From: Pirellulales bacterium
GTDB taxonomy: Bacteria > Planctomycetota > Planctomycetia > Pirellulales > PALSA-1355
Direction of reading: 5' to 3'
Assembly: GCA_963733035.1 (NCBI GenBank)
Contig: CAVTBU010000006.1
Location: 416,001 to 480,000 of the forward strand
DNA length: 64,000 nucleotides
Below, one piece after another: positions 35,385 to 58,338 of the stretch (position 1 is its first letter; each line of letters starts with the position of its first letter). The position numbers and the translations under genes were made by a program. The notes beneath the pieces were generated by a model, which ran no database searches, was not told the DNA's origin, and saw only the letters and a program-made list of their open reading frames with translations.

Positions 35385-35462
35385 GGGTATCGGCAGAGCC
35401 TGAGCGCGACTCAGGTATCCCAAGGGCCCCTTGCTGGTTTTTTTCCAGCAGGGGCCTTTTTT
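35385..35462 (+). promoter_or_regulatory. Structured leader copy 1: conserved box, hairpin and intrinsic terminator
   Basis: GGGTATC-GGCA-GAGCCTGAG-cgcga-CTCAGGT, then GGCCCCTTGCTGG-T7-CCAGCAGGGGCC-T6; same architecture at 44040. Confidence 0.75.
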
Positions 35463-35474
35463 ATTGGGGCAGGC

Positions 35475-36053
35475 ATGATGGCAAGTTCAGATTTGAGATG
35501 CGTCTCCTATCACGATGTGCGCAATCAGATTTGCGACGGCGACCTGCTGTTGTATCGCCGCCGGGGACTGATTTCGATCGCCGGACGCGGCGACCACTCG
35601 CACGCCGCCAAGGCCGCCTGGTGGCGAGACGATCTTTTTTGTCTGGAAGTCCGCGAACTGCACGGAGGACGGGCCGTCACCCTCTCCAGCCAGGTGAGCC
35701 GATTCCCAGGGCACATCGACGTCTACGAAGTGAATCCCGACAACCGCTGGCCGTATTACGATCGCACGGCCGCTTGTGCCGTGATGCGGCGGCTGGCCGG
35801 CTGCCCGTACGGATATGCCGGCGTCGCCGCGGCGGCACTATTGCACTTGCCAGTCGTGCGGCTATTCACCCAGGCCGACGTGCATGATGCCGCGGCATCG
35901 GGCCGCCCTCCGTTTTGCAGCCAGGCATGCGCGATGAGCGACCGCATCGGTGGCGGCGTGGACCCGGTGCCTCACCTGGCGGACCGTCTGACATTGCCGG
36001 CCGATCTGGCACGTAGCCCTTTCTATCGTTACCGCTTTACCCTCACGGCTTGA
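35475..36053 (+). CDS. Permuted papain-like (YiiX/YaeF, NlpC/P60 superfamily) amidase/peptidase
   Basis: GDLLLY, SHAA (His before Cys), GCPY, FCSQ, TLPADL. Confidence 0.7.
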   Translation: MMASSDLRCVSYHDVRNQICDGDLLLYRRRGLISIAGRGDHSHAAKAAWWRDDLFCLEVRELHGGRAVTLSSQVSRFPGHIDVYEVNPDNRWPYYDRTAACAVMRRLAGCPYGYAGVAAAALLHLPVVRLFTQADVHDAAASGRPPFCSQACAMSDRIGGGVDPVPHLADRLTLPADLARSPFYRYRFTLTA

Positions 36054-36056
36054 TCC

Positions 36057-37313
36057 ATGCGACAAATCTCTTTGCTTTTGATCGCTTTGTGCGCGCTCGC
36101 GTTGGTTGATGGAACGTCGGGACAGGCGCGGGCAGTGGATTGCCCGACAGGCAGTTGTCCACTGCAGCCACCGTCTTCGCCAGCTGAAGTCGCCGTCGAC
36201 GCGCGGCCCATTGCACGGATTGAAAACACAACGCCTGCCGCCCGTGCGTATGGTACGGGAACGCTCGTCGACGTCGACGACGACCGAGGACTCGTCGTAA
36301 CCTGCGCTCATCTGTTTCGCGAAGGGGTGGGGACGGTGCGCGTCAGCTTTCCGAACCGCCCGGCGCAAACCGCCCGCGTGTTAAAGGCCGATCACAATGC
36401 CGACCTGGCAGCGCTCGCGATTCCGCCGTTGGAACTCCGGCCAGTGGAAGTTGCCCAGCAGTTCCCGCAGCGCGGCGACATGCTCGTTTCCTGCGGTTAT
36501 GGCGGTGATGGACGGCTGTGGTCTAACCGTGGGCAGGCGCTCGGGTATGTGACCACCGTCGGCAGTTACGGTCGCGAAACGTTGGAGCTGAGCGGCAGTG
36601 CTCGCTTGGGCGATTCGGGTGGTCCGGTGCTCGACGGCAATGGTTACCTGGTGGCCGTGTTGTTTGGAACTGATGGCCGCGTCGTGGATGCCACGTTTTG
36701 CGGCCGCGTGCGAAAGTTCCTCGCCGGCCTCTCGCCTCGATTCGGGCAAGCTCCCAACAGCGATGCGTCGGCATCGAACGACGAGCCTCGCGAAAAACTG
36801 GAAGACGTGCCACCCCGGATTCTGCGGCCGCAACGTTCCCCGCGCGAACAGAATCCAGCCGACGCCGACCCGCTGGCCAAAGCGGCAGACGCGGTAACCG
36901 ACGCCGCCGCGCCCTGGCTCACGGCGAAACTCACGGGGCTGCTCGTGTCTCTGGGAGTTCCCGGCGGAATCGCGGGCGTCGCCGGCGGAGGGCTCGTGTG
37001 GCTGGTCATGCGGCGCGGCAAGAAGCAACTACGAGCGGAAATCGATCGACTCAAAGCTCGCGCCGAGCAGGTACCACCGAACAGCCCGGCCAGCGATTCG
37101 ACTGGCGTACTTGCGTCGAGCACGGCCGGGAGCGTCGTTGAGCGACATCACAACCGTTATGTGGCGTACGAAGCCGGCTCGGTCGACAAGGCCTGGGCGG
37201 CTGCGCACGCCCGGGTCGGCGAGAAGTATCCCGGCGCCGTCCCGTATTTGAAGATCGTCGAAGGGGTCAAAGACCAACTTCTTTCGGGCATCGAAGAACC
37301 ACTTATTTCCTAA
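36057..37313 (+). CDS. Trypsin-like serine protease with signal peptide and C-terminal TM
   Basis: GTGTLV, TCAH, DLAAL, GDSGGP triad motifs; Gly-rich TM followed by RRGKK. Confidence 0.88.
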   Translation: MRQISLLLIALCALALVDGTSGQARAVDCPTGSCPLQPPSSPAEVAVDARPIARIENTTPAARAYGTGTLVDVDDDRGLVVTCAHLFREGVGTVRVSFPNRPAQTARVLKADHNADLAALAIPPLELRPVEVAQQFPQRGDMLVSCGYGGDGRLWSNRGQALGYVTTVGSYGRETLELSGSARLGDSGGPVLDGNGYLVAVLFGTDGRVVDATFCGRVRKFLAGLSPRFGQAPNSDASASNDEPREKLEDVPPRILRPQRSPREQNPADADPLAKAADAVTDAAAPWLTAKLTGLLVSLGVPGGIAGVAGGGLVWLVMRRGKKQLRAEIDRLKARAEQVPPNSPASDSTGVLASSTAGSVVERHHNRYVAYEAGSVDKAWAAAHARVGEKYPGAVPYLKIVEGVKDQLLSGIEEPLIS

Positions 37314-37328: not shown

Positions 37329-38189
37329 ATGAGCACCACGCAGCCGATGTTCACCACCGATGAAATCCTTTGGTACGACAACGGGAAATGGGGCGAAGCC
37401 GGATACGCTATCGCCAACCCCAACGGGAAGATATGGACCGCGAATAGCGTAATTTTTCAATTTCACAGCCTGGTTGGCCGCAACATGTTCGAGTTGATGC
37501 ACCGCACCGACGTGCGGTTCTACGGTCCGCCGCACAAACAGTTCTGGTACGACCTGCACCAGCTCATCGTCACCGCCCGCAAGCGGCTGGCCGATCGCCA
37601 GCGGTTGCCGAACGACTCGAACGGGCTGGTCGTCGAACATGCCTCGCCGGCTCCACAGGTATTCATCGCCTGGCCGATTCCGTTCTTCGGCGATCGTGTT
37701 CGCCAGCCCGACATCCGGGAGTACGCCCAGCTCGCGCTGTTGATGCTCTCGGAGATGATGCAGCACAGCGAGAACGAGCTGCCCACGTATATCACCGACA
37801 GTTTCGCGGCCAAGATCGGTCAGTATCTTCGCGAAATTCTGGCGCTCATGGCCACCAAGTACTTCGGCTACACGCGCACCCAGGCCTACGACCCGGCATT
37901 CGCGCTGCAGGACACGGATTTCGCGAACTACGATCCCTCGAAGGTGATGACCAGCGTTGAGATGACCGAGGAGCGTCCGCCAGTGCAGTGGTGGCCGACC
38001 GAATCCGACCTGACGGCGATTCGGGCGATTCCCTACAACGAGGCGATCGTGCTTTCCAAGCGCTGGCCAGCCACGGCTTTGTTGGGTAGCGAAACGTTCG
38101 CGCCTGCGACGTCGAGCGCCGCGGCAACTTCGCCCGGAACCGCGCCGGCCAGCGCCGCCTTCGTCGCTCCGCCCGGACAGGCTCCGTGA
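37329..38189 (+). CDS. Hypothetical protein
   Basis: AAAGGAG RBS, 286-aa intact ORF, no recognised family. Confidence 0.8.
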   Translation: MSTTQPMFTTDEILWYDNGKWGEAGYAIANPNGKIWTANSVIFQFHSLVGRNMFELMHRTDVRFYGPPHKQFWYDLHQLIVTARKRLADRQRLPNDSNGLVVEHASPAPQVFIAWPIPFFGDRVRQPDIREYAQLALLMLSEMMQHSENELPTYITDSFAAKIGQYLREILALMATKYFGYTRTQAYDPAFALQDTDFANYDPSKVMTSVEMTEERPPVQWWPTESDLTAIRAIPYNEAIVLSKRWPATALLGSETFAPATSSAAATSPGTAPASAAFVAPPGQAP

Positions 38190-38220: not shown

Positions 38221-38472
38221 ATGGCTTTTCCGGAGTGGAGTTTCATTGTGGGGGCGGCGCTTTCGGTTGCCCTCACGGCAGGACCTTGGATGTTCAAAGT
38301 GCATGCCAAGCTGGCAGTGATCGCCAGCAAGATCATCGACCTGTGCGAGAAGCTCGACCGCACGCAAGACGAGCATCGTCGACTGTGGGAAGTCTGCAGT
38401 CGCCACGAGTCGCGGCTCGACACGCACGACGTGCAGCTCTCGCACATCGCCGAGAGGCTGCGCGGCGACTGA
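38221..38472 (+). CDS. Small single-TM coiled-coil protein (holin/XhlA-like candidate)
   Basis: GAGGAG RBS; N-terminal hydrophobic helix followed by heptad region. Confidence 0.55.
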   Translation: MAFPEWSFIVGAALSVALTAGPWMFKVHAKLAVIASKIIDLCEKLDRTQDEHRRLWEVCSRHESRLDTHDVQLSHIAERLRGD

Positions 38473-38505: not shown

Positions 38506-39063
38506 ATGCAAATTCGCGATCGAATTCGAGAGTTTCGTCGAGTGCGCGCCGATACGTTACGTCCGCACCCGCGCAATTGGCGCACGCATCCCCGCGCACA
38601 GCAGGAAGCTGTGCGCGGCGTACTGGCCGAGATCGGCTATGCCGACGCCCTCTTAGCCCGCGAACTGCCGGATGGCTCGCTGCAACTCATCGACGGCCAC
38701 CTGCGCGCAGAACTTACTCCCGACGCGTTGGTGCCGGTGTTGGTGCTGGACGTCAATGAAGACGAGGCGCTGAAGCTGCTGGTTACGGTTGACCCGCTGG
38801 CTGCCCAGGCCGAAACGGATGCTGCCATGCTGCGGGGACTGTTGGACGAAGTGCATACCGACAACCAGGCCGTGGCCGCGCTGCTCGCGTCGCTGGCCGA
38901 AGGAAATCCGCTGGACGGAACACTCGATGATCCCGCGCCCGAAGACCTCATCGTGCCGGCCAGCTTTCAGGTCGTCGTGCAGTGCACAGACGAGGATGAG
39001 CAACGCGAGGTCTACGAACGGATGAGGTCTGAGGGGTTCAAGTGTCGCGTTCTTTCATTGTGA
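38506..39063 (+). CDS. ParB/Srx N-terminal domain protein
   Basis: LRPHPRNWRTH, LAEIGY, LIDGHLR. Confidence 0.85.
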   Translation: MQIRDRIREFRRVRADTLRPHPRNWRTHPRAQQEAVRGVLAEIGYADALLARELPDGSLQLIDGHLRAELTPDALVPVLVLDVNEDEALKLLVTVDPLAAQAETDAAMLRGLLDEVHTDNQAVAALLASLAEGNPLDGTLDDPAPEDLIVPASFQVVVQCTDEDEQREVYERMRSEGFKCRVLSL

Positions 39064-39070
39064 GTCAGAC

Positions 39071-40178
39071 ATGCCTGTAGTCGAAGCAACCGTTAGTTGT
39101 CCGCTGTACGATTCGTTTCGCGTACAGCAGGTGGCGGGCATGTTCGACGTGCCGCTCGAAGAGCGACCGGCGCAGTCGTTTGCCGTGGACGTGCCCGATG
39201 TGGACGAAGACTGGCAAATCGGTTTGATTGTCGGTCCCTCGGGAAGCGGCAAAACGACGATCGCCCGGCGCGCGCTTGGCAAGTACCTGTGCGATGAACC
39301 CCAATGGCCGACGAACCGGGCCGTCGTCGACTGCTTCGGGCGCTCACGGCGAAGCAAATCACCGGGCTATTGACGGCGGTTGGATTCGGCTCTCCGCCGG
39401 CCTGGGTGCGGCCCTACCGGGTACTCAGCCGCGGAGAACAATTCCGCTGCGACCTGGCACGCGCACTCGGCGTTGCCATGGAGCAAGGCGCTCGCAAACC
39501 GCAGCGCTTCCGCCGCTGGTCGTCTTCGATGAATTCACTAGCGTGGTCGATCGCAATGTCGCGCAAATCGGTTCGGCCGCGATTGCGAAGTCGATTCGCG
39601 GAGGCCGCCTTCCCGGCCGTTTCGTGGCGGTCACCTGTCACTACGACGTCGCCAACTGGCTCGAGCCCGACTGGGTGGTCGACATGGCAACGCGCACCTG
39701 CTCGCGGAGGCGTCTTCGGCGACCGCCCATTGAACTTGAGCTGCACCGCTGCCATCGGCACCTCTGGACGTTGTTTGCGCCGCATCACTATTTGAGCGGA
39801 GCTCTCAGTCCGGGGGCGCATTGCTATGCGGCCTGGTGGCAGGGGCGGCCAGTCTCGTTTTGCGCCACGCTGCCCGTCATCGGCCGCAGAAATCATTGGA
39901 GAATCTCGCGCATCGTGACGCTGCCCGACTATCAGGGCGTGGGCATCGGCATGCAGGTGGCCGAGGCGGTGTGCCAGCTCTATCGCGCGGCTGGCTGCCG
40001 CATGAACGTGACGGCCAGCCACCCGGCCATGATCGCCCATTGCACGCGCTCGCCGCGATGGCGCACCGTGCGCGTGCTGCGCTCGGGTGCCGGCGAAACG
40101 CGACATTTTGTGCGCAGCTACCGTAGTTCGGCAGGGCGGAGCGTGGTGTCCTTCGAGTATCTGGGAAATCGACCGTGA
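39071..40178 (+). CDS. ABC-type ATPase fused to GNAT acetyltransferase, frameshifts near 39340 and 39505
   Basis: [61 protein letters not shown], spread over three frames. Confidence 0.85.
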
Positions 40179-40648
40179 GCGAGCGCAACGAACCGGGCCG
40201 GCCGCCGGTCCTCGACGACGTCAAGAAGGGCATGATTTGCGCCGTGCTGGCGATGGGAGGCACGCGTGTCACGGCCGCGGCCTACGTCGGCTGCCATCCC
40301 GACACGATTCGCAAGACCGAGCTGCGCGACGAGGAATTCGCCCAGAACCTCGAACAGGCAGAGTCAAAGCACGAGGTGTCGCAACTTGCCTATATCAGCA
40401 GCGCCGGCAAGGAAAGCCGACACTGGCGAGCCGCGGCCTGGGCGCTGGAGCGACGCTATCCCGGCCGCTATGGCCAACGACGCCCGGAGTTATTTACGCT
40501 CGACCAGGTATCTCACGTGGTGACCCAATTCGCCAGCGTGATTCTCGATGAAGTGACCGACAGCGTGCAGCGCGAACGTATCCTGGCGCGGCTGACCGTC
40601 TTGTCGGCCAGCCTGCAATCCACGGCCCTCGCGGGAGACAATTCATGA
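40175..40648 (+). CDS. Probable terminase small subunit (N-terminal HTH)
   Basis: GRPP start, AAAYVGCHPDTI HTH, WRAAAWALERRYP; overlaps the large-terminase start. Confidence 0.7.
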   Translation: MSERNEPGRPPVLDDVKKGMICAVLAMGGTRVTAAAYVGCHPDTIRKTELRDEEFAQNLEQAESKHEVSQLAYISSAGKESRHWRAAAWALERRYPGRYGQRRPELFTLDQVSHVVTQFASVILDEVTDSVQRERILARLTVLSASLQSTALAGDNS

Positions 40649-42255
40649 AACTCACCGCCACTTGGAATCGCGAAGGCATTCGCACCGATGCCTGGGCCGA
40701 ACTTGCCTTGCATCTCAGGGCTTGCGTGGCTCGCCGCGTGCGCTGTGAGGGGCGCGACAACCTGCCGCTGCTCGACTGGGGCCGCCGCTACCTGCCGCAC
40801 TATTTCCAAAAGCCCCCCTCGGGCATGCACCAATGGCTGGCCGAACGGCTGGATACGATGACCACCGAGCGCGGCACGAAGCTCAATGCCATTGGGCCGC
40901 GCGGTGGTGCCAAAAGCACGATCGGCACGTTGACCTACGCCCTCCGTGCGGCCGTCGAAGGCTGGGAGCCCTACATTTGGATCGTCTCCGATACCAAACA
41001 GCAAGCGCGCGGACATCTGGAGAACCTCAAGCTCGAACTGACGACCAATAAACTGCTCGCCGACGACTATCCCGCGTCCACCGGCAAGGGTTCCACCTGG
41101 CGCGTCAACGTGGTTCGCCTGAACAACGGGGTCACGATCGAAGCCTTGGGCACGGGCCAGCGTCTGCGCGGAAAACGAAGCGGTGCCAATCGTCCGACGC
41201 TTATCGTGTGCGATGACTTGCAGAATGACGATCACATGCGCTCGGCTATGGCACGCGAGAACTCGTTGCGGTGGTTCGAAGGCGCGTTGCTCAAGTCTGG
41301 CACGCCGCAGACGAACGTCGTCAACCTGGCCACGGCACTCCACCGCGATGCCCTGGCGCTCAAGCTCGATCGCACGCCCGGTTGGACATCGCAAGTGTTC
41401 CAGGCAATCCGCCGCTGGCCCGACAACATGAGCCTGTGGCATGAGTGGGAGCGGATCTACTGCAATCTGGAAGGTGGAGATTCGCCAGCCGCCGCGCGTG
41501 CGTTCTACGAGCGCAACCGCACGGCCATGGACGAGGGGGCCGAATTGTTGTGGCCCGAACTCGAAGACCTCTACACGCTGATGCGGATGCGGGTGGAAGG
41601 TGGACGTACCGCGTTCGAGCGCGAGAAGCAGGGTTCACCACTCAGTCCCGACGCCTGCGAGTGGCCGGCCGACTACTTCGACGAGCACGTGTGGTTCGAC
41701 CGGTGGCCCAGCGACTTGAGGCTCAAAGTCATGGCGCTCGACCCGAGCAAGGGGCGCGACTCCCGGCGGGGCGACTACTCGGCCTTCGTGCTGCTGGGCG
41801 TGGACCGCGACGGGGTGCTCTACGTCGACGCGGACCTCGCGCGACGCCCGACGCCCGAGATGGTGGCCACCGGCGTCGAACTCTGCCGGGTATTTCGTCC
41901 GGACGCGTTTGGCGTCGAGACTAATCAGTTCCAGGAATTGTTGTCCGACGAGTTCGCCGCGGAGTTTCAGCGACAGGAAATGGTCGACGTGCATCCCTGG
42001 GGCATCGACAACCGGGTGAACAAGCCCGTGCGGATCCGGCGGCTTGGCCCCTTTCTCTCGAGTCGCAGGCTGCGATTCAAGAGCGACTCACCGGGTACGC
42101 GACTGCTGCTCGAACAGCTGCAGGAATTTCCGGCCGCCGATCATGACGACGGACCCGACGCGCTGGAGATGGCAATCCGACTGGCGGGAGAACTCCTGGG
42201 CGGTACGGCAGTGGGCGACAGCCTGGGCGATCGGATACCCGTGGGGGCGGGGTAG
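40645..42255 (+). CDS. Terminase large subunit
   Basis: PRGGAKST Walker A, LIVCDD Walker B, FEREKQG, nuclease ALDPSKG...DYSA, VETNQFQ, HDDGPDA. Confidence 0.93.
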   Translation: MKLTATWNREGIRTDAWAELALHLRACVARRVRCEGRDNLPLLDWGRRYLPHYFQKPPSGMHQWLAERLDTMTTERGTKLNAIGPRGGAKSTIGTLTYALRAAVEGWEPYIWIVSDTKQQARGHLENLKLELTTNKLLADDYPASTGKGSTWRVNVVRLNNGVTIEALGTGQRLRGKRSGANRPTLIVCDDLQNDDHMRSAMARENSLRWFEGALLKSGTPQTNVVNLATALHRDALALKLDRTPGWTSQVFQAIRRWPDNMSLWHEWERIYCNLEGGDSPAAARAFYERNRTAMDEGAELLWPELEDLYTLMRMRVEGGRTAFEREKQGSPLSPDACEWPADYFDEHVWFDRWPSDLRLKVMALDPSKGRDSRRGDYSAFVLLGVDRDGVLYVDADLARRPTPEMVATGVELCRVFRPDAFGVETNQFQELLSDEFAAEFQRQEMVDVHPWGIDNRVNKPVRIRRLGPFLSSRRLRFKSDSPGTRLLLEQLQEFPAADHDDGPDALEMAIRLAGELLGGTAVGDSLGDRIPVGAG

Positions 42256-42336
42256 GGGGATGGCAAAAGTCAGAGGGATGAAGGAGGAGAGATACGGAAT
42301 TACTCGCCTTGAAGTCAAGATCATGAGGAGTTTGTG

Positions 42337-43811
42337 ATGAGTAGCAACGGCGTAGTGGAACGTGACGTATCCGAGCGGTTGAACCGTCGATTGGCCGAGG
42401 CCTGGCAAAGTCTGTGGGATAACTTTGTCGATCCGCGAGAGTCGCTCTCTGATGATGGCGGCGATTGGATCGAGCTGGGAGCCGGTGGCGGAGCGACCAC
42501 GGCATCGTTGCCCTTCGGCAATGAGCAGGAGCTTCGTGAGATCCGCACGCAGTGCCGGGCTCTTGCGGTCGGAAACGAGTTCGCGATCAACGGACACGAG
42601 AACCGCATCAGCTTTCTGGTAGGCGCGGGACATACGTATCGCGCTGCTGTGAAGAAGGGGCGGGCGGCTTCCGACGAGTTGGCGAGCCGCGTGCAGGAGG
42701 TGTTGGATCGGTTCATTGCCGAAAACCGGTGGCACCGCCGCCAGCAGGAGATTGTCCGCCGCTACGATCGCGACGGAGAAGTGTTTCTACGTCTGTTCGC
42801 CACGGACGATGGCCAGACGCGTGTTCGTTTCGTCGAGCCTGGGCAGGTGGCCACGCCCAAGGAACTGGTAGGCGACGCGTCTGCGAGCTTCGGCATTCAA
42901 ACTGAGCCCGATGACGTGGAGACGCCCCTGTACTACTACATCGACGGCCGGCCGGTCGACGCTGCCGACGTGCAGCATCGCAAGGCAAACGCCGACGCGA
43001 ACGTCAAACGCGGGTTGCCCCTGTTCTATCCCGTGCGAAAGAACTTGCGACGCGCCGAGAAGCTGCTGCGCAACATGAGCGTCGTGGCAGAGATTCAGTC
43101 GGCGATCGCGTTGGTCAGAAAACATCGCGGCGCAACGCGTGCCAGCGTGCAGCAGTTCGCTTCGTCACAGGCCGACGTCAGCGTCACGTCGCCGGCGACC
43201 GGCCAGACGACCAACTATCGCCGGTTCGGACCGGGCACCATTCTCGACAGCCACGGTGGAATCGAATACGACTTTCCGACCGCGGGGCTCGACGCCGGCA
43301 ACTTCGTGACGATCTTGCAGGCCGAGCTCGCGCGATTGCCAGCCGACTGGTGATGCCTGAGTTCATGCTTACGTCGGATGCTTCGAACTCCAACTATGCT
43401 TCGACGATGGTGGCCGAGGGGCCGGCGATGCGGATGTTTGCCCGCTCGCAGGCCGAACTGGTGCACGACGACTTGTGCGTGATGCACCGCGTGCTGGAGA
43501 ACGCCGTGATCGCCGGTCTGTTGCCGCGTGAAGCGCTGACGCAAATCGAAATTCAGGCCGCACCGCCAACGCTGGCCGTTCGCGACCCGCTAGAAGAAGC
43601 GCAGGCGTTTCGCATCGAGTTCGAATCCGGCATTCTCTCGCCGCAAACTTGGAGCCAGCGGCGAGGCCTGGACTACGACCAGGAACAGACCAACTGGCGG
43701 CAAGCAAGGGACCGCGCCGCGCATGCTCCCGCGCCGCGAAAAAAAATTCCGCGACCGGCGAAAATGGAAATTGAAATCGGGCCAGCACTCCGGGTAACTT
43801 CGGAATCATGA
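42337..43811 (+). CDS. Portal protein, frameshift near 43335
   Basis: LREIRTQCRAL, RDGEVFLR, KRGLP; continues PEFMLTSDASNSNYAS...GILSPQT...GLDYDQE; position after terminase. Confidence 0.88.
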
Positions 43812-44119: not shown

Positions 44120-44141
44120 GTCTGACAAGGAAACCAAAACG

Positions 44142-50358: not shown

Positions 50359-51087
50359 ATGTATCTCAAATATGGAACGTACCAGCATCCGCCGGGCGAA
50401 GCGTCGGTGGTGATTTCCAAACAGGGGCTGTTCAGCGACGCGGGCCTGCCGCAGGGCGTCCGCGAGCGATGGGACATACAAGGGCGCTTGCAAGCAGCGG
50501 ATCAAACGGCGCTCTCGGCCGCGATCGATGCCCTCACTTCGGCCTACGCTATACAGGGGCAGGACCTCGGCTTCTACTTCGACGACGGACAGCCCTCGAG
50601 CCATCAGATCACCGGCTCTTCGACCAACGGCGGAGTGCGTGTTGTCATGCCGCCGAGCTTTCCGCAAGGGAAGGGAGCCGAGTACTCGACTTTTCGCAAC
50701 TACGCGATCTCGCTGGAAGCCGAACTGCTGGACAGCGGTGCCACGCTCATCCAGTGGAACGAGCGGCTCAACTTCTCGGGAGGCGGCCCCCAGTTTGCCT
50801 TCCTGCAACCGATTAACGGGTTGCCAATCAAACAATTGCTCCGGCAGGCCACTCCGTATCACGCTGCGCAAAGCGGCGAAGCCGTCGGCTATCAGGCCTA
50901 TCCCACACCAGCGCTGCCACTGTGGCCCGACGCCGAACACGTGAACCAACGCGAGGTTCACTACGAGCTTCCCAAACGTATGGGACCACCCGGTAGCGCC
51001 ACCTACACACACTATCGGGTCACCTGGGCCTATCGCTTCGAGTCGGCCACGCCGCTGGTCGGAGCGCCGACCGGCTGGCCGTCGTGA
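50359..51087 (+). CDS. Putative distal-tail-like structural protein
   Basis: Intact 242-aa ORF after tail tube, beta/aromatic-rich; function inferred from position. Confidence 0.55.
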   Translation: MYLKYGTYQHPPGEASVVISKQGLFSDAGLPQGVRERWDIQGRLQAADQTALSAAIDALTSAYAIQGQDLGFYFDDGQPSSHQITGSSTNGGVRVVMPPSFPQGKGAEYSTFRNYAISLEAELLDSGATLIQWNERLNFSGGGPQFAFLQPINGLPIKQLLRQATPYHAAQSGEAVGYQAYPTPALPLWPDAEHVNQREVHYELPKRMGPPGSATYTHYRVTWAYRFESATPLVGAPTGWPS

Positions 51088-51126: not shown

Positions 51127-52959
51127 ATGACCGTACCGCAAGGATTGGCTGCATTTCCGGGCATCGATCAACTGATCTCGGCATCAATTACGCTGAGCCA
51201 CGGCATCTCACCCAGCACTGCCAGACTAACGATGGCCCCGCAGGCCACGCCGCCCGCCGAGCTCGGCACGCTGCAATTTGTGTTGGGAACAGCGGTCGTC
51301 GAATTCCCGGAATGCAAAGTCGATCACGGCAGCTACCAGCGGAGCGACAGCGGCGAGTTCTGGCAAGTGTCGCTGCTCGACCGCCGCTGGAAATGGCGGT
51401 TTGGCCAAGTCTCAGGTCGATTCAACGTGTGGCGAGACAACGCCACACTTCAGAACGGCGATCCAGCCGGCTCATAGGTTCCGGCTTGGTGACCGACACC
51501 GAGCGCACACCGCAGGAATTGGCGGAGTTATATCTCAATGCCATGGGCGAAGTGGACTACGACATTTCCGAGTTGCCCGACGATACTCGACCCCCGGTCG
51601 ATCACGACTATGACAATCCGGCTGAGGCCCTGGCCGCATTGTGCGAAAGCCTGGGTTGCCGGATCGTGCTGCAACTCGACAACACGGTCAAACTAGTTCG
51701 CAGTGGCGCGGGAGCCGGCCTGCCTGCCGAATTCCTTTTGGAAGACAGCCTGACCATCGACCTGCCGGAAAAGCCGGACAAGATTGCAGTCGTCTGCGGG
51801 CCCAGCTTGTATCAGGTGGATTTTCCGCTGGAAGCAGTGGGACTCGACCGCGACACGACGTCCGGGGGCGACCCGACCGATACGATCAAGCCGATCGACG
51901 AGTTGAGCTACAAGCCGTCGGGCGGTTGGGGACAGATCGACTTGCCCTTGTTTGCTGATCTGTCGGCCGCCGACGACGAGGAGGATGTAAGCGGCTTGCG
52001 ACTCCCTGGCCACCAAGAGCGTCTTTCGCTACTACCGTATCAAACTTCCGATCAAGGTGCCCGGCTACGACGGTGATTCCGACGGATTGGTGACGAAACG
52101 CGAACAGCTCCTGCCGCTCTTCGAAGAGCAGGTTGTTTCGGCGGTCGAAAACGACGACAGCGTGCCGCTGCCCGCGGCCGTGTTCGGAGTGTGGTATCCA
52201 GGCCTCGACGATCAAACGAATACCGCCGAGCAACTTGCGCCGCTCGGAAATTCACCACCCGCGGCAGGTCCCGGCGGGACGTACAAGTCGCCGTTCTACA
52301 ATCGCGGCTTCACGCTAGACGCTGCCCGCGGTCTTGTGATTTTCAACGAGCCCGTCTACAAGAACGCCACGCCCAATGCGGCCAAAGTTACTCCGGAGCC
52401 TGCGCAGCTGGTGCTACGCACAAAGTGCCAGGTGCGCGACGCCGAGACGCTGACATTGTCACGTCACATTCGCGAGCGATCGACGGACTCGTCGCTCGGC
52501 ACGCAAACACAGTTCATCCGCCGCGATGAATTGACCGTAACCCACGTGCCAACGTATTCGGCCGCGACGTACGCCGAGGTACCAACGGCAGGTGCCGATC
52601 CGCGAGTCGTCGACGACGTGGAATCCACCGTTGACGACGTGAATGCCGCCTGCGACTACTATATCGACGCCGCGCTTGAGGAATATCAGCAGCCCGAACC
52701 GCGACAAGTCCGGACCGCGGGCATTTACCCCATCGATCTCGACGGCGCGATTGCGCAGGTCACCTATCAGATTGGCCCCTCCGGCGCGACGACTACCGTC
52801 GCCCGGGGGAGCGAACCATCGAGTTTCGCGGCCAGTCACGGCGAACGACGGCGCGCCGAGTTGTCTCGCGAGGCCAACAGGGAAGTTCGCAGGCGGCGCT
52901 CCGGCACCACCGGCCGTACCACACGTCGCGAGGCCGCTGCACGGAGGCAGGCACGATGA
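51127..52959 (+). CDS. Putative tail hub/tip protein, frameshifts near 51475 and 52005
   Basis: Three consecutive protein-like fragments (LLDRRWKW; PAEALAALCESLGCRIV; LDGAIAQVTY). Confidence 0.55.
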
Positions 52960-55480
52960 ATCACGACAATCCACACTCGCTCGCCCGGCCGCTGCCGTTT
53001 CGCAACGTCTCGGGCGAAACCGTTCCAGCCTTTGCTGTCATGGCGATCCAGGGCTTGTCGACGGAAAACGGCATGGCCGTTTTGCAGTGCGGCCAGCCCG
53101 ACACGACTTTTCGCCGGCACTACGCGGTAAATGGCATCCAAGACGTGCCGGCGGGCCGACGTGGTAGTTGCTTTCGCGCCGGCGACGTACGCGTAAGCTA
53201 CGGATCGGGCACGCCCGAGCCGGGCGAGGGATGGGGACCCAAGCCCGGCAGTTGGGCATGGCCCAGGGATTTCCGGGTAGCACAATTCAAGGAATTGTCG
53301 ACGCGTCGCACAATATCGCGCGGATCGATTGTGAACCGATCGATCGCGCGTGGTGAAAACGACGGCAACCGTAGCGACCGATTCGAGTACCACGGACTAT
53401 CGCATTCATGCCGGGCCGGCGGGAAGCGAAATCGACGCCGGCTTTACCAACGTTCCCGCGGCCCACAATCGTAGCGGCCAGGTAATCGCCAGCGGCCAAT
53501 GGGCCTACCTTGTGTGGATCAACAATGGCTGGGAGATCCAGCCTATGCGACAGGCCGCGCTGTGTGCGGTGCCACCGTGCGGCGAGGGCATTCCCGCGAG
53601 CGGCGAGCAGCCCGGAGCGAATGTTTGTTGCCTGTTTACGATCGCCGCCGGCACGCTTGTTCCGGTGCTCGATGAGGAAGGGGCTCAGCTCAGGGCAACG
53701 GTGTACAACGTTCGCGAGATGGCAATTCCCCCGCTGGAGCCGCCCAATGAGCGGTATTTGCTGGTGTATGCGGATCCCAGCGGACGTTGGGTGTGCGAAG
53801 TGCCCGACACCAGTTCCGCCCACGAGCGCGTCGACCGCGACGACCAGTACCACAACGACGACCACGCTCGCGCCTTGCGCGGGAACCTGCAAATGGGTCT
53901 GGAATGATACGGATTCGGTGTGGGAGCTCGACGACAACAACTGTGCGACGGGCAGCTGGGTTACGTCGCCAGAACCGACCACGACCACGCCCGCTCCCGA
54001 CTGTCTTTGCCCCACGACAACGACGACCAGCACGACCGGCGATCCGAGCACCACGACGACGACCAGCACGACGACCACGACGCCATCGCCGTGCGATTGC
54101 GTGTATCCCGGCTACTGCGGCAGCACGGCCGGCGAGTGCACGTACACCTCCTGCGCTTCGGGCAACCAGAGCCCCTCAGTCGAGTGCACGACGACCACGA
54201 CCACCACGACGACCAGCTGCGACTGCAACACCACGACCACGGCGGATCCTGGGCCAGGCTGTAGCGATTGCAGCTGGTTCGATCACCCCGTCTATGGTTG
54301 GCAGAAGACGAGCGACGGGTGCCTGGGCGATTGCAGTTGCTCGCCGCCCGGCGGCGGCAGCGGCGATTGCAGCGCTGCGAGCACGCCTTGCGTCCCCGAT
54401 CCCATCATACCGCTGCCGCCGTGCGTGGGGTCGTGCGAGTGGCTGTGTATCCCCGAGCAGGGCTGGTGGCTCCGCAGCAACGGCTGTCCCGGTTCGTCGT
54501 CGACGGGCCCTTGCTTTTGCATTCCGCCCAGCGTTCCCTGCGACGTGTGCGGAGCGCCGCTCTCCACGGGGTGTCAGAGTCCGACCACGACCACACAGCC
54601 GCCGGGCAGTTGTCCGCAGTGCTATTCGACCACGACCAGTACCACCACGACGACGACCGCGGATCCCTGCGGCACGGGCTGCTTGTGGGACGGCAGCACG
54701 AGTGGCGACTGGACACTGTCGGCGAACCATTGCAGCCCGGGATGCGACTGCCTGCCTCCCTCATATGATGCCACCGACGATTGCGAGACGGCTCACACCC
54801 AGTGCTATCCGGGCCTGACCACGACGACGACCACCACAACCACCACGACCACGACGAGCACCACCACGACAACCGCGGAGCCCTGGTGGTGCGTGACCGC
54901 CGGCGGATGCGACGAGGCGAGCTGCCTGCAGGGGCAGGAATCGGACTTCTCCAGCATCACGATCTGTAGCGGTCCGCATGCCGACGAGGCGACGTGCATC
55001 GCCGATCCCTGCCCGCAGCCCACCACGACGACCACGACGACGACTTCCACTACCACGACGCCTGCTCCCTACTGGTGTTGTGACGATGGGCTGGGCGGCG
55101 TATGCGTTCAAGAATCCGGCGGGCCATGCAGCGGCTACAGCGGGACGCTCAGCGGGCCTTACGCGGATTCCACAGCCTGCGCCGCGGCCTGTGACACCAC
55201 CACAACGAGCACAACCACCACGACCACCTGCGATCCGCTTAACGATTGCACCGCCGGTCCCAGCCAGTGCGCGGTCGCCTGTAACAACTTCGTCTACGAG
55301 GTGACCGATCTGTGCATCGCCAACGGCAATGGCTGCGTGTGCGATTTGCCGCCGGACGCGATCGCCGTCCTGGGACAACCGTGCACGGAGGCTTATGGAA
55401 TTTACTCATGCTGCAATCAGTGCCCGGGCGCAAGCGTCTCGGTTTGCACGAATACCACCACCACGACTCCCGCCCCCTGA
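52956..55480 (+). CDS. Putative tail fibre/adhesin with Cys-rich modules and poly-Thr linkers, indels near 53255, 53350 and 53820
   Basis: N-terminal FRNVSGETVPAFAVM domain; C-terminal ~550 aa with about 60 Cys (hand count) and Thr tracts up to 13 residues. Confidence 0.7.
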
Positions 55481-55495
55481 CAAGGAGAAAAGTGT

Positions 55496-57457
55496 ATGAC
55501 GTATCCGGCAAAAACAGCACCGGCGTCCCCGCCGAAAACAGCACCGACGCCGAAGCTAACCATCGGCCTGCCGACGTACGACGATTTCGACGGCTGCTGG
55601 TTCACCCTGCAAAGCCTGCGACTGCATCACGACATGCGCGAGGTCGAATTGCTGCTGGTCGACAACAAGCCCGACTCGCCCGGCTCGGCCGATCTGAAGC
55701 AAAAGGTCGAGGGCTGGTTCCGCCCCGGGACCGCCGGCACGCGGTACATTGCCATGCCGGGCGATGGCGGACCGGCCTTGGCGAAGGACCGCGTGTTTCG
55801 CGAGGCGGCCGGCGAGATTGTGCTCTGTCTCGACTCGCACGTGCTGCTGGCTCCCGGCGCGATCACGAAGCTGCTCCAGTGGTACGACGATCACCCGGGT
55901 AGCCACGATCTGGTGCAAGGCCCGCTCTTGCTCGATCACCTGGCCGGCGTGCACACGCATTTCATCGACACCTGGCGCGGCGAAATGTGGGGCATCTGGG
56001 GCTCGGCCTGGGAAGTCTGTCCGGGAGGCGACCGGGTGAGCGTCGTCGAGGCTGGCGGGCGCGTGCAGTATTTGGCGCTGGACATGGGGAACGTGCCACT
56101 CTCCTCCAGCGCGGTTTGCCAGCGCGAACTGCCCGCCGTGGCTTGGGCCGGTCATGAACAACATCTGCTGGCTGCCGGCCTGCGGCCGCTGGGGCTGGCC
56201 GACAACGACGAATTTGAGATCCCCGGCATGGGCTGCGGCTTGATCAGTTGCCGGCGGCAGGCCTGGCCCGGTTTCAACGAGCACTTCCGTGGCTTCGGCG
56301 GTGAGGAGATGTACCTGCATGAGAAGTTCCGGCAGCGCGGCGACCGCTGCCTCTGCCTGGGGTTCCTCAAATGGGTGCACAAGTTCGCGCGGCCTGGCGG
56401 CGTCAAGTATCCGCTCACGCGCTGGAACAAGGTCCGCAACTATGTGCTGGGACATCAGGAATTGGGCCTGCCGCTCGAGCGCGCGCACGAGCATTTCGTG
56501 GGTGGCAAATTAATGAGCGAGCGGCAGTGGGAGTATTTGCTGGCCGATCCAATCGGCCACACGAGCGAGCCGGCCGCGCAAGCGCCCGGGACCATCGACG
56601 AGCTCTACGAGCAGGTGCAGGCCACGAAGTGGAGTTTGGACCAGCACATGCCGGCGCTTCGGGCGCTCGCCGAGCAATGCGAGCACGTGACCGAGTTTAG
56701 CCACACCCGCGAGTCCTTGGTGGCGCTGGCGGCCGGCAGTCCCGCGGCGATGATCTCGTACAACGTCGATCGACAGGCACCCGCCGCGGCGGCGCTCTGT
56801 CCCTACGTGGAATTGCAAACCGTCGATTCGCCCGAGGTGCCCGCGATCGACGAGACCGACCTGTTGTTCCTCGACACCAAACATACCCGCGCCCGCCTGG
56901 CCGAGGAGCTGGAAAGATTCGCCCTCCAGGTGCGGCGCTACATCGTGCTCCATGACACGGCCCTGCACGGCAGCCGCGGTGAAGACGGGGGCGCGGGCCT
57001 GGTGCCCGCGATTCGCGCCTTCATCGAAGCGCATCCCGCCTGGTTCGTCGCCAGCCACACGCAGACGCAATACGGCCTGACGGTACTGGGCTGCCGGGAG
57101 CAAGACCGGCCGGCCCAGCCGATTCGGCTCTGGCCGCCCGACTTCGGACCCGGTACGGAACTGAAAGCGATGCTGGCCAGTCTGGGCATCGAGCCGGCTC
57201 CCTCCTGCGATTGCAACGGCAAGAGCGTGCAGATGGACGTCTGGGGCGTGGCCGGCTGCCGCGCGAATCGCGAGCAGATCATCACTTGGATGCGCGAGGG
57301 GCAGTCGCGCTGGGGCTGGAAGGACAAACTGGCCGCCGCCGCGGCCGCCGTAAAAAGCGGTCTGGCATTCAAGCTCAATCCGCTCGATCCGTTCCCCAGC
57401 TTGATTGATGAAGCGATCCGCCGGGCGGAGGAGCGCGAAAGGCAGGCGGCCGCATGA
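55496..57457 (+). CDS. GT-A glycosyltransferase + class I SAM-methyltransferase-like domain + C-terminal Cys domain
   Basis: AAGGAG RBS; LTIGLPTY, LCLDSH, GFGGEE, VHKF; DLLFLDTKHT...YIVLHDT; GPGTELK...CDC. Confidence 0.85.
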   Translation: MTYPAKTAPASPPKTAPTPKLTIGLPTYDDFDGCWFTLQSLRLHHDMREVELLLVDNKPDSPGSADLKQKVEGWFRPGTAGTRYIAMPGDGGPALAKDRVFREAAGEIVLCLDSHVLLAPGAITKLLQWYDDHPGSHDLVQGPLLLDHLAGVHTHFIDTWRGEMWGIWGSAWEVCPGGDRVSVVEAGGRVQYLALDMGNVPLSSSAVCQRELPAVAWAGHEQHLLAAGLRPLGLADNDEFEIPGMGCGLISCRRQAWPGFNEHFRGFGGEEMYLHEKFRQRGDRCLCLGFLKWVHKFARPGGVKYPLTRWNKVRNYVLGHQELGLPLERAHEHFVGGKLMSERQWEYLLADPIGHTSEPAAQAPGTIDELYEQVQATKWSLDQHMPALRALAEQCEHVTEFSHTRESLVALAAGSPAAMISYNVDRQAPAAAALCPYVELQTVDSPEVPAIDETDLLFLDTKHTRARLAEELERFALQVRRYIVLHDTALHGSRGEDGGAGLVPAIRAFIEAHPAWFVASHTQTQYGLTVLGCREQDRPAQPIRLWPPDFGPGTELKAMLASLGIEPAPSCDCNGKSVQMDVWGVAGCRANREQIITWMREGQSRWGWKDKLAAAAAAVKSGLAFKLNPLDPFPSLIDEAIRRAEERERQAAA

Positions 57458-58338
57458 CGACATACTCGTCGCAAAAAACACTGGTTTCATGTCTCTGCCC
57501 GACGTTCAACCGCTACCCGCGGCTGGCGTGGCTGCTCGAGGAAGCGGTCGAGTGCTTCTTGCGCCAGGACCACGCCGACAAGGAGCTGCTGATCCTGAAC
57601 GACACGCCCGGACAAAAGCTCGTATTGGATCATCCGCAAGTGCGGGTGTTCAACGCCCAGCGGCGGCTGCCGGACTTGTCGGCGAAGATCCAGTACCTCG
57701 TCGATCGGGCCGCCGGCGATGTCTTTTGCCGCTGGGATGACGATGATTTGTCATTCCCTTGGCGGTTGAGCTATTCGCTCGCTAGGCTCGACGATCGCGT
57801 CGAGTGGCGGCCTGAGAATTTCTGGTTCGCCAATGGCGATCAGCCGTGGAAGGAAGATCATCATCCGGGCAATACGCACGTGATGGCCATCTGGCGGCGC
57901 GCGGCGCTCGACTTGATCGGCGGCAAGTACCCGGCTGGGTTTAGCGGCGGCGAGGACATTTCCTTCAACCGGCGGTTGGCCGAGGCCGGGTTGCCGCCGC
58001 GTGGCGACCTGCTGCCGACCGACGAGATGTTCTATGTCTATCGCTGGGGCACCGGTAGCCGGCACCTTTCGGGCGTCAGCGATAGCAGCGCGAGGCCGCA
58101 CCAGGCCCATTGGAACGCCCTGGGACAACTGCCGATCGAGCCCGGTACGTTTCGCATCAAGCCCCGGATGCGCAATGGTGGCGCATGGTACCAAGTGCCA
58201 CTAAGTCCTACGGGCAAATCTTGCTTGGATGCCGCCGCGTCTCGTCCGGCAGCGTCAGATTTCGGTAATGGCAATCTTTTGATAGAGCAAATCGACCACC
58301 CCCATCAGGAATCCTGCTTCGGCACTCTCCAGCAGTAA
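57454..58338 (+). CDS. Glycosyltransferase family 2 protein
   Basis: VSCLCPTFNR, ELLILND, RWDDDD, GED. Confidence 0.88.
   Translation: MTTYSSQKTLVSCLCPTFNRYPRLAWLLEEAVECFLRQDHADKELLILNDTPGQKLVLDHPQVRVFNAQRRLPDLSAKIQYLVDRAAGDVFCRWDDDDLSFPWRLSYSLARLDDRVEWRPENFWFANGDQPWKEDHHPGNTHVMAIWRRAALDLIGGKYPAGFSGGEDISFNRRLAEAGLPPRGDLLPTDEMFYVYRWGTGSRHLSGVSDSSARPHQAHWNALGQLPIEPGTFRIKPRMRNGGAWYQVPLSPTGKSCLDAAASRPAASDFGNGNLLIEQIDHPHQESCFGTLQQ

Follow-up and report, generated by a model that had tools for sequence, protein, structure and literature searches.

Phage-particle genes of the order Pirellulales as a probably host-owned, gene transfer agent-like cluster

Gene transfer agents (GTAs) of the RcGTA type occur in Alphaproteobacteria such as Rhodobacter capsulatus and Caulobacter crescentus, and RcGTA itself has an HK97-type head. 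They are encoded by a head-tail gene cluster devoid of integrase and replication genes, which passes vertically through a large clade and is maintained by purifying selection, has been lost in individual lineages and has parts of its genes at separate loci in some genomes. Capsid and packaging genes of their own, without phage propagation, are also found in cf-PICI satellites and PBSX-type defective prophages. The satellites encode an integrase and replication functions and are mobile between strains, traits that are not seen in the cluster described here. PBSX is, to our knowledge, confined to close Bacillus relatives, whereas the present cluster spans an order. This cluster of phage-particle genes, assigned with Pfam and PHROGs, occupies about 23 kb (35367-58749, co-oriented on the + strand except for the XRE gene) of a 64,000-nucleotide stretch of a Pirellulales genome, in the following called the window, and shares with the RcGTA-type GTAs the above traits of gene content, inheritance, selection, lineage loss and separate loci. 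Its ancestry appears to be independent, as it encodes a lambda-family portal (PF05136), a decoration protein and a Phage_capsid_4 capsid protein, a distinction drawn from Pfam families. Compared to RcGTA the cluster is larger, contains two peptidases, a ParB-like protein, an NTPase-GNAT fusion and an XRE regulator, has no tape measure gene that could be found, and is known here from its genes alone. Further GTAs found experimentally are VSH-1 (Brachyspira hyodysenteriae), Dd1, VTA and BaGTA, as listed in a 2024 review (PMC11841831). They are, like our cluster, independent domestications of tailed phages, in another host phylum and from another phage ancestor, and they were found by function, our cluster by sequence only. 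The genome of VSH-1 is divided, to judge from the title of a paper cited in that review, which resembles the split modules of some Pirellulales. A search of the literature returned no description of such a GTA-like particle for the phylum Planctomycetota. We consider it likely that the cluster represents a domesticated phage-particle gene set, i.e. a GTA-like 'viriform', of the order Pirellulales. Since it is inherited throughout the order like ordinary chromosomal genes, it is not a passing prophage and probably constitutes host-owned genes of a GTA-like particle; that it produces particles, what these contain and that they transfer DNA is what we infer from the genes.

A first-pass annotation of the same DNA had described co-oriented structure and packaging genes between housekeeping genes, which the Pfam and PHROGs assignments confirm, and the neighbours it had named are found as described. 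These are a MoCF_biosynth gene (moaB; 32968-33573), an EEP nuclease (33721-34704) and an HD hydrolase (34717-35313) on the left, and a PolB-like exonuclease (59299-60117) and an M20 peptidase (61560-62801) on the right. The gene set between them comprises head, packaging, tube, hub and tip genes, two peptidases, two glycosyltransferases and the XRE regulator. Three details of that annotation have to be corrected. It had placed the terminase at the start, where 35367-40178 in fact holds genes for a ClpP/crotonase-like protein and a trypsin-like peptidase, for a conserved protein of unknown function and for the ParB-like protein and NTPase-GNAT fusion; its 'fibre' end consists of a Cys-rich protein with poly-Thr linkers and two GT2 glycosyltransferases; and the XRE gene, which it had taken for a right-hand flanking gene, accompanies the cluster in other families and is therefore part of it.

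In the following, a gene is called split if the source assembly distributes it over two or more frames. The first gene of the element (35367..36053) encodes a ClpP/crotonase-fold protein (phrog_1128, E = 1e-6), homologues of which are located 5' of the cluster in other families (61% identity in G035, 59% in G042) and in a prophage of genome G003 (32%; see below). It is followed by a trypsin-like serine peptidase (36057..37313; Pfam Trypsin_2, E = 8e-18; NCBIfam MarP-like match below the cut-off), which also has a homologue in that prophage, and by a helical protein (37329..38189) that is 85-88% identical in G001, G003, G016 and G024 and, with a dN/dS of 0.056, belongs to the most conserved of the cluster. 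All 103 homologues of this helical protein are unnamed or 'hypothetical', and a structure search with its AF2 model (pLDDT 81.5) returned no fold match. A small conserved ORF of 83 aa (38221..38472) is 79% identical to an 83-aa ORF of G016, for which a weak phrog_1009 match is obtained. Next come a ParB-like nuclease-domain protein (38506..39063; phrog_498, phrog_620, phrog_723) and a P-loop NTPase-GNAT fusion (39071..40178; phrog_11143, E = 6e-64), which stand in this order in the other-family loci examined as well. The fusion lies here in three frames, with breaks near 39340 and 39500 and no A-run found at either of them, and is a single 366-aa ORF in G016 (phrog_11143, E = 7e-98). The terminase is encoded by the genes for the small subunit TerS (40175..40648; phrog_4102, E = 6e-15) and the large subunit TerL (40645..42255; phrog_38, E = 1e-76; Terminase_6C), the latter being intact. 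Hereby, the Walker A residues P85, R86, G87, A89, K90 and T92, the Walker B residues D190 and D191 and the aspartates of the nuclease domain are invariant across 30 TerL sequences.

The lambda-family portal gene (42334..43811) is split near 43329. Both pieces match Phage_portal_2 and phrog_21, lie in one frame in relatives and form a single ORF where one is called (G137, G139, G077, G035). A small conserved ORF of 60 aa (43808..43990; 63% identical to a G016 ORF) is located 5' of the protease-position gene, in other families as well. The prohead protease/scaffold-position gene itself (44064..45091; phrog_29592) is split near 44475 and corresponds to a single ORF of 340 aa in G016. The head is completed by a decoration (cement) protein (45097..45627; Phage_cement_2, E = 4e-9; phrog_122) and the frame-broken major capsid protein (45689..46850; Phage_capsid_4), followed by a 71-aa ORF (46959..47174) that is 80% identical in G016 and has homologues 3' of the capsid gene in G137, G139, G077, G025, G037, G026 and G031.

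Two neck-position genes of 105 aa and about 187 aa (47171..48084; 54-73% identity within the source family, dN/dS 0.16-0.19) gave no family match in Pfam or PHROGs. They precede a DNRLRE/CBM96-domain protein (48081..49394; CBM96, E = 1.5e-8; NCBIfam DNRLRE_dom, E = 3e-16) with a homologue in the G003 prophage, and the tail tube protein (49408..50330; Phage_tube_2, E = 4e-22), whose frame is broken near 49575 and at 50165-50280 and whose intact G016 counterpart has 307 aa (Phage_tube_2, E = 2e-24). The 242-aa protein at the distal-tail position (50359..51087) returned no family match; it is 64-73% identical in the source family and 35% identical to its G003 prophage counterpart. The gene at 51127..52959, in three frames here and a single ORF of 604-610 aa in G016, G001 and G003, is a putative baseplate hub of the gp27/Mu gp44/VgrG type, as suggested by Foldseek matches of a low-confidence model (pLDDT 58) to eCIS, Mu and other phage hubs (best E = 2.9e-6). 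A conserved tail-end protein of 172 aa (52956..53474; 46-61% identical in the source family, dN/dS 0.12) is followed by a variable Cys-rich protein (53510..55480), the translation of which contains poly-Thr linkers and internal repeats. This candidate fibre or receptor binder is not conserved in G016 or G024, and its residues 380-642 are 37% identical to the G003 prophage. Both GT2 glycosyltransferase genes (55496..58338; Glycos_transf_2) vary among relatives, and the first one also carries a methyltransferase-like region. The XRE-type HTH regulator (58255..58749, - strand) faces the cluster, shows a repressor-type PHROGs match (HTH_31 and HTH_3 in the G016 orthologue) and is present at the cluster end in G016, G024, G004, G022, G077, G137 and G032.

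In agreement with the first-pass annotation, which had seen no integrase, replication or recombination genes, tRNA target or flanking repeats, Pfam, PHROGs and NCBIfam searches of the cluster ORFs yielded no integrase, replication gene or primase. Genome-wide scans for tyrosine and serine recombinases (PF00589, PF00239) found none within the window; on this contig the closest match is 139 kb away. The window as a whole holds no integrase, replication gene or tRNA, and no convincing flanking direct (att) repeat was found. Likewise, Pfam and PHROGs identified no lysis gene in the window, and the cluster contains no tape measure gene, which in the prophage relative lies directly behind the tube gene. 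A homologue of that tape measure was not found elsewhere in the source genome by tblastn with low-complexity filter. The absence of tape measure and lysis genes counts against the GTA-like reading.

To evaluate the distribution of the cluster, TerL and capsid genes were traced through the order. TerL is present in 185 of 301 genomes (139 of the 217 high-quality ones), mostly with one copy per genome, and 32 of the 41 relatives have it; capsid genes occur in 177 of the 301, nearly always as a single copy, at 58-88% identity. Outside the order, a TerL match of about 41% identity was obtained in four of 250 genomes of the phylum, and TerL of isolated phages reaches at most 37.5%. At least three IMG/VR matches (L103, L108, L112) represent the same chromosomal locus with host flanks. 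In at least five families the cluster is bordered by the same host genes: the flanks are shared by three further genera of the source family, G003, G016 and G024 show them on the sides covered by contigs, in G001 the HD gene of the left flank is found at a contig end, and the left flank recurs in G139, G077, G032 and G137, members of four other families. The cluster has been lost repeatedly, TerL being present in no more than 20 of the 32 family members and 4/10 genomes of genus g3. Empty sites in close relatives, which the first-pass annotation had held to speak against vertical inheritance, do occur (G013, G014, G019), but they retain truncated cluster genes and are thus deletion scars, not virgin insertion sites. 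The packaging module is separated from the capsid module in some genomes, by 870 kb in G187, 42 kb in G123 and 45 kb in G196, or found on different contigs (G025, G037, G026, G039, G031), and both modules stay conserved where split. The tail genes differ or are missing outside the source family, G137, G077 and G035 having the head genes plus only two or three small ORFs; hence, what is conserved as a unit are the head and packaging genes, and this would suit functions besides transfer as well. PF18906 was found in none of five whole genomes, while the control matched in Caulobacter.

Three established classes of elements were considered and rejected. An ordinary temperate prophage is ruled out by the missing integrase, replication genes and att repeats, by the order-wide, mostly single-copy occurrence and by empty sites that are deletion scars. 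A cf-PICI-type satellite disagrees with the lack of integrase and primase, the presence of tube and hub and the fixed locus, and a tailocin with the presence and conservation of capsid, portal, TerS and TerL.

The TerL tree and the RpoB tree coincide at all supported nodes and show the same genus and family groups; as deep nodes are not resolved in either tree, this congruence is seen only at shallow and middle depth. TerL and RpoB distances correlate with a Mantel r = 0.70, a value inflated by shared ancestry that none of 5000 permutations reached, and family monophyly on the TerL tree is not rejected by the AU test (p = 0.42). In G033 and G035, TerL identity is higher than the RpoB distance predicts. 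Across 25 gene segments of the cluster dN/dS amounts to 0.04-0.26 (G001 vs G003), with 0.065 for TerL (G002 vs G003) and 0.04-0.15, i.e. purifying selection, for the tube, hub and tip genes of the source family; flanking host genes show 0.17-0.33 (G016-G003 pair). The dS of cluster genes (0.45-1.17, near saturation for several genes) is host-like when compared to rpoB (0.51) and the HD gene (0.84; all G001 vs G003).

A 47-kb prophage in the same-genus genome G003 (C1, about 102.1-149.2 kb) is the closest sequence relative with a full phage gene set and the nearest lineage with replication genes. It has a gene order in common with the cluster, including the two peptidases and the helical protein, and identities of 52% for TerL, 35% for the portal, 32% for the capsid, 41% for the tube and 58% for the first GT2 gene. 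Unlike the cluster, it carries a tyrosine integrase, PrimPol, UvrD-like and SNF2 helicases, an HNH endonuclease, a Mu-F-like head protein and a 753-aa tape measure, whereas it is devoid of the ParB-like and NTPase-GNAT genes. This lineage is patchy, with full-length TerL in two of the 41 relatives and fragments in five, including the source genome, where the TerL fragment lies beside integrase fragments. The first-pass annotation had proposed a vertically inherited GTA-like system and had suggested examining distribution, synteny, tree congruence, dN/dS and linkage to mobility genes. As a statement on evolution this proposal is supported: TerL is order-wide with flanks shared across genera and families, it follows RpoB, relaxed selection is not seen, and linkage of homologues to integrase and replication genes is limited to the distinct, patchy prophage lineage.

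We propose that a temperate siphophage with a lambda-type head was captured by an ancestor of Pirellulales, perhaps an older one, and would subsequently have lost its integrase and replication genes and, in the source family, also its tape measure gene. The particle genes would then have been passed down with the chromosome under purifying selection. A host signal may act via the adjacent XRE-type regulator on transcription of the ~23-kb operon, upon which a procapsid would be assembled from portal, protease/scaffold protein, capsid and decoration protein and be filled with DNA in a headful manner by TerS and TerL together with the ParB-like and NTPase-GNAT proteins. Neck, tube, hub and the presumably glycosylated Cys/Thr-rich tip protein would be joined afterwards. 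Particles would be released through lysis functions encoded elsewhere and would bring mostly host DNA to neighbouring cells.

Alternatively, the genes could be host-owned but kept for a purpose other than transfer, which we regard as rather unlikely. They might serve as a killer particle of the PBSX kind, in programmed lysis that releases DNA for biofilm, as a decoy or interference device against related phages, or as a capsid-based compartment. Such a purpose would agree with an order-wide core of head and packaging genes around which tail modules are swapped, moved or missing, and with the missing tape measure gene of the source family; the active-looking related prophage lineage in the same genomes would provide a target for an interference role. 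The retention of TerS, TerL and portal with invariant catalytic motifs, however, argues that filling of capsids with DNA matters, the tube, hub and tip genes are under purifying selection, and the data point to no specific alternative role. Very unlikely in our view is a still mobile, helper-dependent satellite or defective phage that borrows integrase, replication functions and tape measure from a G003-type phage. It is true that the cluster is missing exactly what the 47-kb prophage carries, that its tail genes are homologous to those of the prophage at 30-41% (and one glycosyltransferase gene more closely, as given above), and that the right-hand 5 kb differs between close relatives in the manner of host-range regions. 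Yet the chromosomal site is constant across genera and families without att repeats, trees are congruent and dS is host-like, modules up to 870 kb apart would be intolerable for a packaged mobile element, and only the two relatives mentioned above possess a full-length TerL of the helper lineage.

In the source copy, reading frames are broken by about 20 single-base indels. Of these, 11 affect the capsid gene as compared to G016 and L103; the capsid gene of G024 is free of them, too. The cluster may therefore be dead in the source strain, against which speak the broken frames of rpoB and several flanking housekeeping genes in the same assembly and the normal changes in the capsid: read in the frame of the relatives, it is 89.5% identical to L103 with a pN/pS of 0.17 and no excess of amino-acid changes. 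These frame breaks, together with the deletion of the cluster in several relatives, would be expected of a functionless cryptic prophage remnant that decays slowly and is carried by chance. We consider this extremely improbable, as it is contradicted already by the selection and distribution data, i.e. the low dN/dS and the conservation of the capsid across 177 genomes. Moreover, the cluster ORFs are intact in cleaner assemblies, the breaks extend to housekeeping genes including rpoB, and genuine remnants of the related prophage, which occur in the same genomes, are reduced to short fragments.

Regarding the favoured reading as domesticated, GTA-like particle genes, the composition of the cluster, judged host-like in the first-pass annotation, is so at third codon positions, where the cluster matches its flanking genes (GC3 0.732 vs 0.729), but not overall, with a raised GC content of 62.8% vs 60.3% for the genome (top 1.7% of 1082 windows of 18 kb). 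Raised overall GC along with host-like synonymous sites is likewise the published composition of RcGTA-type GTAs.

All credible genes between positions 35367 and 58338 of the window, which spans C6:416001-480000 of a genome of 6.65 Mb in 10 contigs (G000), are encoded on the plus strand with short gaps between them. Their order was derived from Pfam, PHROGs and NCBIfam assignments together with intact orthologues in cleaner genomes. Genes 1 to 6 of this cluster code for a ClpP/crotonase-fold protein, a trypsin-like peptidase, a conserved unknown protein (37329-38189), an 83-aa ORF, a ParB-like protein and a P-loop NTPase-GNAT fusion (phrog_11143). They are followed by TerS, TerL and a lambda-family portal (genes 7 to 9), a 60-aa ORF, a protein in protease/scaffold position (phrog_29592), a cement/decoration protein and the major capsid protein (Phage_capsid_4; genes 10 to 13), and by a 71-aa ORF, two genes in neck position and a DNRLRE/CBM96 protein (genes 14 to 17). 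The tail tube (Phage_tube_2), a 242-aa protein, a protein of ~604 aa and a 172-aa protein (genes 18 to 21) precede a Cys-rich protein with poly-Thr linkers (gene 22) and two GT2 glycosyltransferases (genes 23-24), while the last gene, encoding an XRE-type HTH protein (58255-58749), lies on the minus strand and faces the cluster. The ~604-aa protein is a candidate baseplate hub, as its model, although of low confidence (pLDDT 58), matches baseplate hubs from contractile injection systems, from phage Mu and from other phages (E values down to 2.9e-6). In TerL, no variation was seen across 30 sequences in the Walker A and Walker B residues or in the acidic residues of the nuclease domain. The GC3 of the cluster is the same as that of the flank, and its overall GC lies 2.5 points over the genome mean.

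As the first-pass annotation had proposed, the gene assignments on either side place the cluster between host genes. Its description of a cluster without tRNA target, integrase, replication gene or flanking repeats also holds for the window, in which no tRNA, no tyrosine or serine recombinase, no replication gene and no flanking repeats above chance level were found. Neither a tape measure gene nor lysis genes were found in the cluster. For the conserved unknown protein, the ESM Atlas gave no usable match and Foldseek returned nothing at E <= 0.001 against PDB and BFVD; the top hit in VIA-align wide (Z 5.9) is a generic helical match, and the homologues are named 'Pirellulales bacterium'. At the end of the cluster (53510-58338), Cys-rich modules joined by poly-Thr linkers are followed by the two glycosyltransferase genes, whose products may glycosylate the linkers of the neighbouring protein. 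In G016 and G024, which belong to other genera of the same family, other genes stand in this place.

In G003, a genome of the same genus, and in G016 and G024, the same host genes flank the entire cluster on the sides that their contigs cover; in G001, also of the same genus, the same HD gene lies at the contig end. The same left-flank genes stand ahead of the cluster in genomes of four other families (G139, G077, G032, G137), and in G077 the same peptidase gene is found on its far side. The remaining nine other-family genomes examined show different flanks, or flanks beyond the stretch compared.

Three members of the family, 96-99% complete (G013, G014, G019), are without TerL, and their flanking genes are 4-8 kb apart. 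All three still have genes 1 and 2 of the cluster, along with 18-41 codons from the start of gene 3. This remnant is fused directly, in G013 and G019, to an XRE gene without its C-terminus; in G014 the XRE gene is whole and accompanied by 3.8 kb of other genes (L084, on G014:C16), which separate it from the truncated gene 3 and code for a PEP-CTERM-like secreted protein, a membrane protein and a 355-aa protein. The breakpoints of the independent deletions in G013 (L085) and G019 (L083) differ, yet they are oddly close, namely within ~70 bases on the left and ~10 on the right (window 37383-37455 and 58434-58447), and no repeat accounting for this closeness was found. Empty sites in close relatives, which the first-pass annotation had named as evidence against vertical inheritance, thus do exist, but judged from their remnants they are deletion scars. 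Since the three genomes do not form one clade apart from the carriers in the RpoB tree, the cluster was lost more than once. A site-specific insertion into a host gene, based on the survival of the first 41 codons of 37329-38189 in the cluster-less relatives, was rejected: full-length homologues of this gene, with its N-terminus, go along with the cluster in other families and are also present in a related prophage, the XRE gene at the opposite end has been truncated as well, and the breakpoints of G013 and G019 are not the same.

TerL is present in 32 of 41 relatives (24 of the 29 high-quality genomes), its identity ranging from 73-77% within the genus to 56-66% in other families. Across the order Pirellulales it occurs, usually in single copy, in 185 of 301 sampled genomes (139/217 high-quality). 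It is near-universal in families f12 (31/33), f19 (29/32), f20 (13/13) and f25 (12/12), rare in f4 (3/20) and f6 (3/17), and was found in none of the 33 genomes of f15. The distribution of the capsid gene agrees with this (177/301 genomes, 58-88% identical to its G016 counterpart). Of 250 genomes of the phylum sampled from outside the order, only 4 yielded a TerL match at E <= 1e-60, with ~41% identity, and the TerL of isolated phages reaches 37.5% at most. Homologues of the NTPase-GNAT gene, however, occur in another four families of the class (best matches 41-49% identity), and thus the gene set may predate the order. At least three IMG/VR matches (L103, L108, L112) represent the same chromosomal locus with host flanks.

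The TerL tree comprises 30 rows, and its deep nodes are open, as are those of the RpoB tree. Strongly supported TerL groups are G000 with G001-G003 and G016, a pair from genus g4, a trio from genus g2 and a pair from family f8. The first three are also shown by the RpoB tree, which has no row for G077 of the f8 pair, and no supported conflict between the two trees was seen. Constraining the TerL tree to family monophyly lowers its log-likelihood by 2.0 units (AU p = 0.42). Among 22 genomes, the pairwise distances of TerL correlate with those of RpoB at a Mantel r of 0.70, a value inflated by shared ancestry and reached in 0 of 5000 permutations. In the G001-G003 comparison, each of the 25 cluster segments shows dN/dS values of 0.04-0.26 at a dS of 0.45-1.17, several dS values being near saturation; for comparison, dS is 0.51 for rpoB and 0.84 for the flanking HD gene. 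The flanking host genes of the G016-G003 pair have a dN/dS of 0.17-0.33. The checks suggested along with the initial proposal of a vertically inherited cluster, i.e. synteny, congruence of terminase and species trees, and dN/dS, hence speak in its favour, with shared flanks, agreeing supported nodes and the low dN/dS of the cluster segments.

Several cluster genes that are single ORFs in G001, G003 and G016 are spread over two or three frames in G000. Housekeeping genes of the left flank are likewise broken (window ~4971, 13905, 15488, 18700 and 26190), and rpoB of G000 is in two pieces, with a frame shift at G000:C5:2075289-2075295. The assembly thus carries indel errors, which affect the gene calls and the completeness figure of 92%. 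We counted lineage-specific indels with a length that is not a multiple of three in three-way alignments of G000, G016 and G024, and obtained 5, 5 and 11, respectively, in the flank (27,466 bases) and 20, 5 and 11 in the cluster (12,367 bases). The capsid gene accounts for 11 of the 20 in G000 and for none in G016 and G024; outside this gene the excess of G000 is within alignment noise. These 11 single-base indels lie within 740 bases (45887-46620) and outside homopolymer runs, at a density far above that of the rest of the window, and none is present in L103 either. Read in the codon frame of its relatives, the G000 capsid gene is 89.5% identical to the closest relative with a pN/pS of 0.17, which equals the ratio found between G016 and L103 (0.18). 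Because decay through 11 indels should raise amino-acid change, and no rise is seen, a local assembly error is favoured over a very recent inactivation in the G000 strain alone, which the indels may otherwise reflect. Such an error may stem from reads of other Pirellulales that were mis-mapped onto this very conserved gene in polishing. A search of sequencing runs for the window returned no RNA run and only one soil DNA run (0.09 share of words), which gave four short low-depth contigs from a relative; one of these has two letters fewer than the window at 46457-46691, which matches the net +2 of the window's indels there and is compatible with real as well as with erroneous indels. A programmed frameshift in the NTPase-GNAT gene was rejected, as there is no A-run at either break and the G016 ORF is uninterrupted, and its frame breaks are read as assembly errors. 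A pseudogenised G000 copy is disfavoured by the indel counts, which are within noise outside the capsid gene, and by the capsid pN/pS.

In five compared genomes (G025, G037, G026, G039, G031), the capsid module and the packaging module, the latter reaching from the ParB-like gene to the portal, are on different contigs. The split capsid module consists of the 60-aa ORF, the protease-position, decoration and capsid genes, the 71-aa ORF and the neck genes, the decoration gene not being seen in G031, and its capsid protein is 74-80% identical to that of G016. In four further genomes both modules share a contig at a distance of 870 kb (G187), 42 kb (G123), 45 kb (G196) or 29 kb (G057). Since both halves are conserved, and a phage genome could not be packaged from two distant loci, this arrangement argues for host ownership. 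Tail genes vary with the lineage. Those of the family of G000 include the Phage_tube_2 tube and the hub; Phage_tube_2 was found in none of five whole genomes from other families. G139, of another family, has a tape measure as well as a tail terminator, and its major tail protein is a different one; G037 has a tail terminator and a long co-oriented gene array downstream of the capsid gene, where G137, G077 and G035 have two or three small genes only.

A second, divergent copy of the same gene order is present in G003 and G001 (TerL 52%, tail genes 30-41% identical). In G003 it belongs to a 47-kb, seemingly complete and temperate prophage (L090-L091, L141-L142; G003:C1 ~102.1-149.2 kb), which encodes a tyrosine integrase, PrimPol, UvrD-like and SNF2 helicases, an HNH endonuclease and a 1257-aa Laminin_G_3 protein, and whose tube gene is separated from the gene behind it by a 136-aa gene and that of a 753-aa coiled-coil tape measure. 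The cluster has none of the prophage's integrase, PrimPol, helicases, HNH endonuclease, 136-aa gene and tape measure, and nothing stands between its tube gene and the gene that follows. When G000 was searched by tblastn for the 753-aa protein, with a low-complexity filter that weakens the search, no tape measure was found elsewhere in the genome. The prophage lineage is mostly represented by fragments in other genomes. In G000, tyrosine integrase fragments and a serine recombinase accompany a fragmentary second TerL (55% identity over residues 296-519) at G000:C4:34355-35299, 36309-36834 and 45528-45983, and this group looks like a decayed ordinary prophage of the related lineage.

The cluster is probably a GTA-like, host-owned particle gene set. 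A phage would have been captured when the order arose or earlier and then stripped of mobility and replication genes, the host keeping the remainder; on the genomic side, such a history is in kind what defines a GTA. That the particle serves another host function is a distinctly less likely reading, a helper-dependent mobile element appears improbable, and a functionless remnant is more improbable still. More tentatively, Planctomycetia could possibly keep an ancient host-owned DNA-packaging capsid system, made up of the ParB-like protein, NTPase-GNAT, TerS, TerL, portal, protease, decoration protein and capsid, for which a tail is dispensable or interchangeable, and which would be a new GTA type or a capsid device independent of a conventional phage tail. 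Hereby, the capsid protein would evolve almost as slowly as RpoB, and the tail would be swapped between families and absent in some, with modules up to hundreds of kb apart and no tape measure gene in the family of G000. Such a capsid system would be as old as the order or the class, because the NTPase-GNAT gene reaches four other families of the class.

Full-text searches found no planctomycete GTA in the literature, and the one preprint that prominently contains both terms has, in its retrieved text, alphaproteobacterial GTAs as its subject. A 2024 review lists experimentally known GTAs from Alphaproteobacteria, Bartonella, Brachyspira, Desulfovibrio and Methanococcus, i.e. very few lineages, and names the finding of new ones outside Alphaproteobacteria as the main obstacle to knowing GTA frequency; the word stem 'Planctomyc' is absent from the retrieved portion of this review (PMC11841831). 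The cluster is a candidate GTA of independent origin in Planctomycetota, and the evolutionary tests by which tamed elements are told from prophages place it with the former. Bench tests are feasible, since it is present in ~60% of the sampled genomes of an order with cultured strains. Full head-tail, head-only and split-module copies together with a living prophage relative form a natural series in which one can study what a host retains of such a particle, and for what reason. If transfer were confirmed, the particle would constitute a gene-exchange route in Planctomycetota, a phylum for which, to our knowledge, few such routes are described.

Beyond the cluster, the XRE gene is followed 1.4 kb further right by a TfoX_N-domain gene (60116-60571, plus strand; Pfam E 1.7e-13), which was not found in G024 and is present in G016. 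TfoX-family proteins are regulators of natural competence in other bacteria. The window furthermore encodes YTV-repeat and DUF1501 proteins (26944-28353 and 9981-11399), families typical of planctomycetes, consistent with the taxonomic placement.
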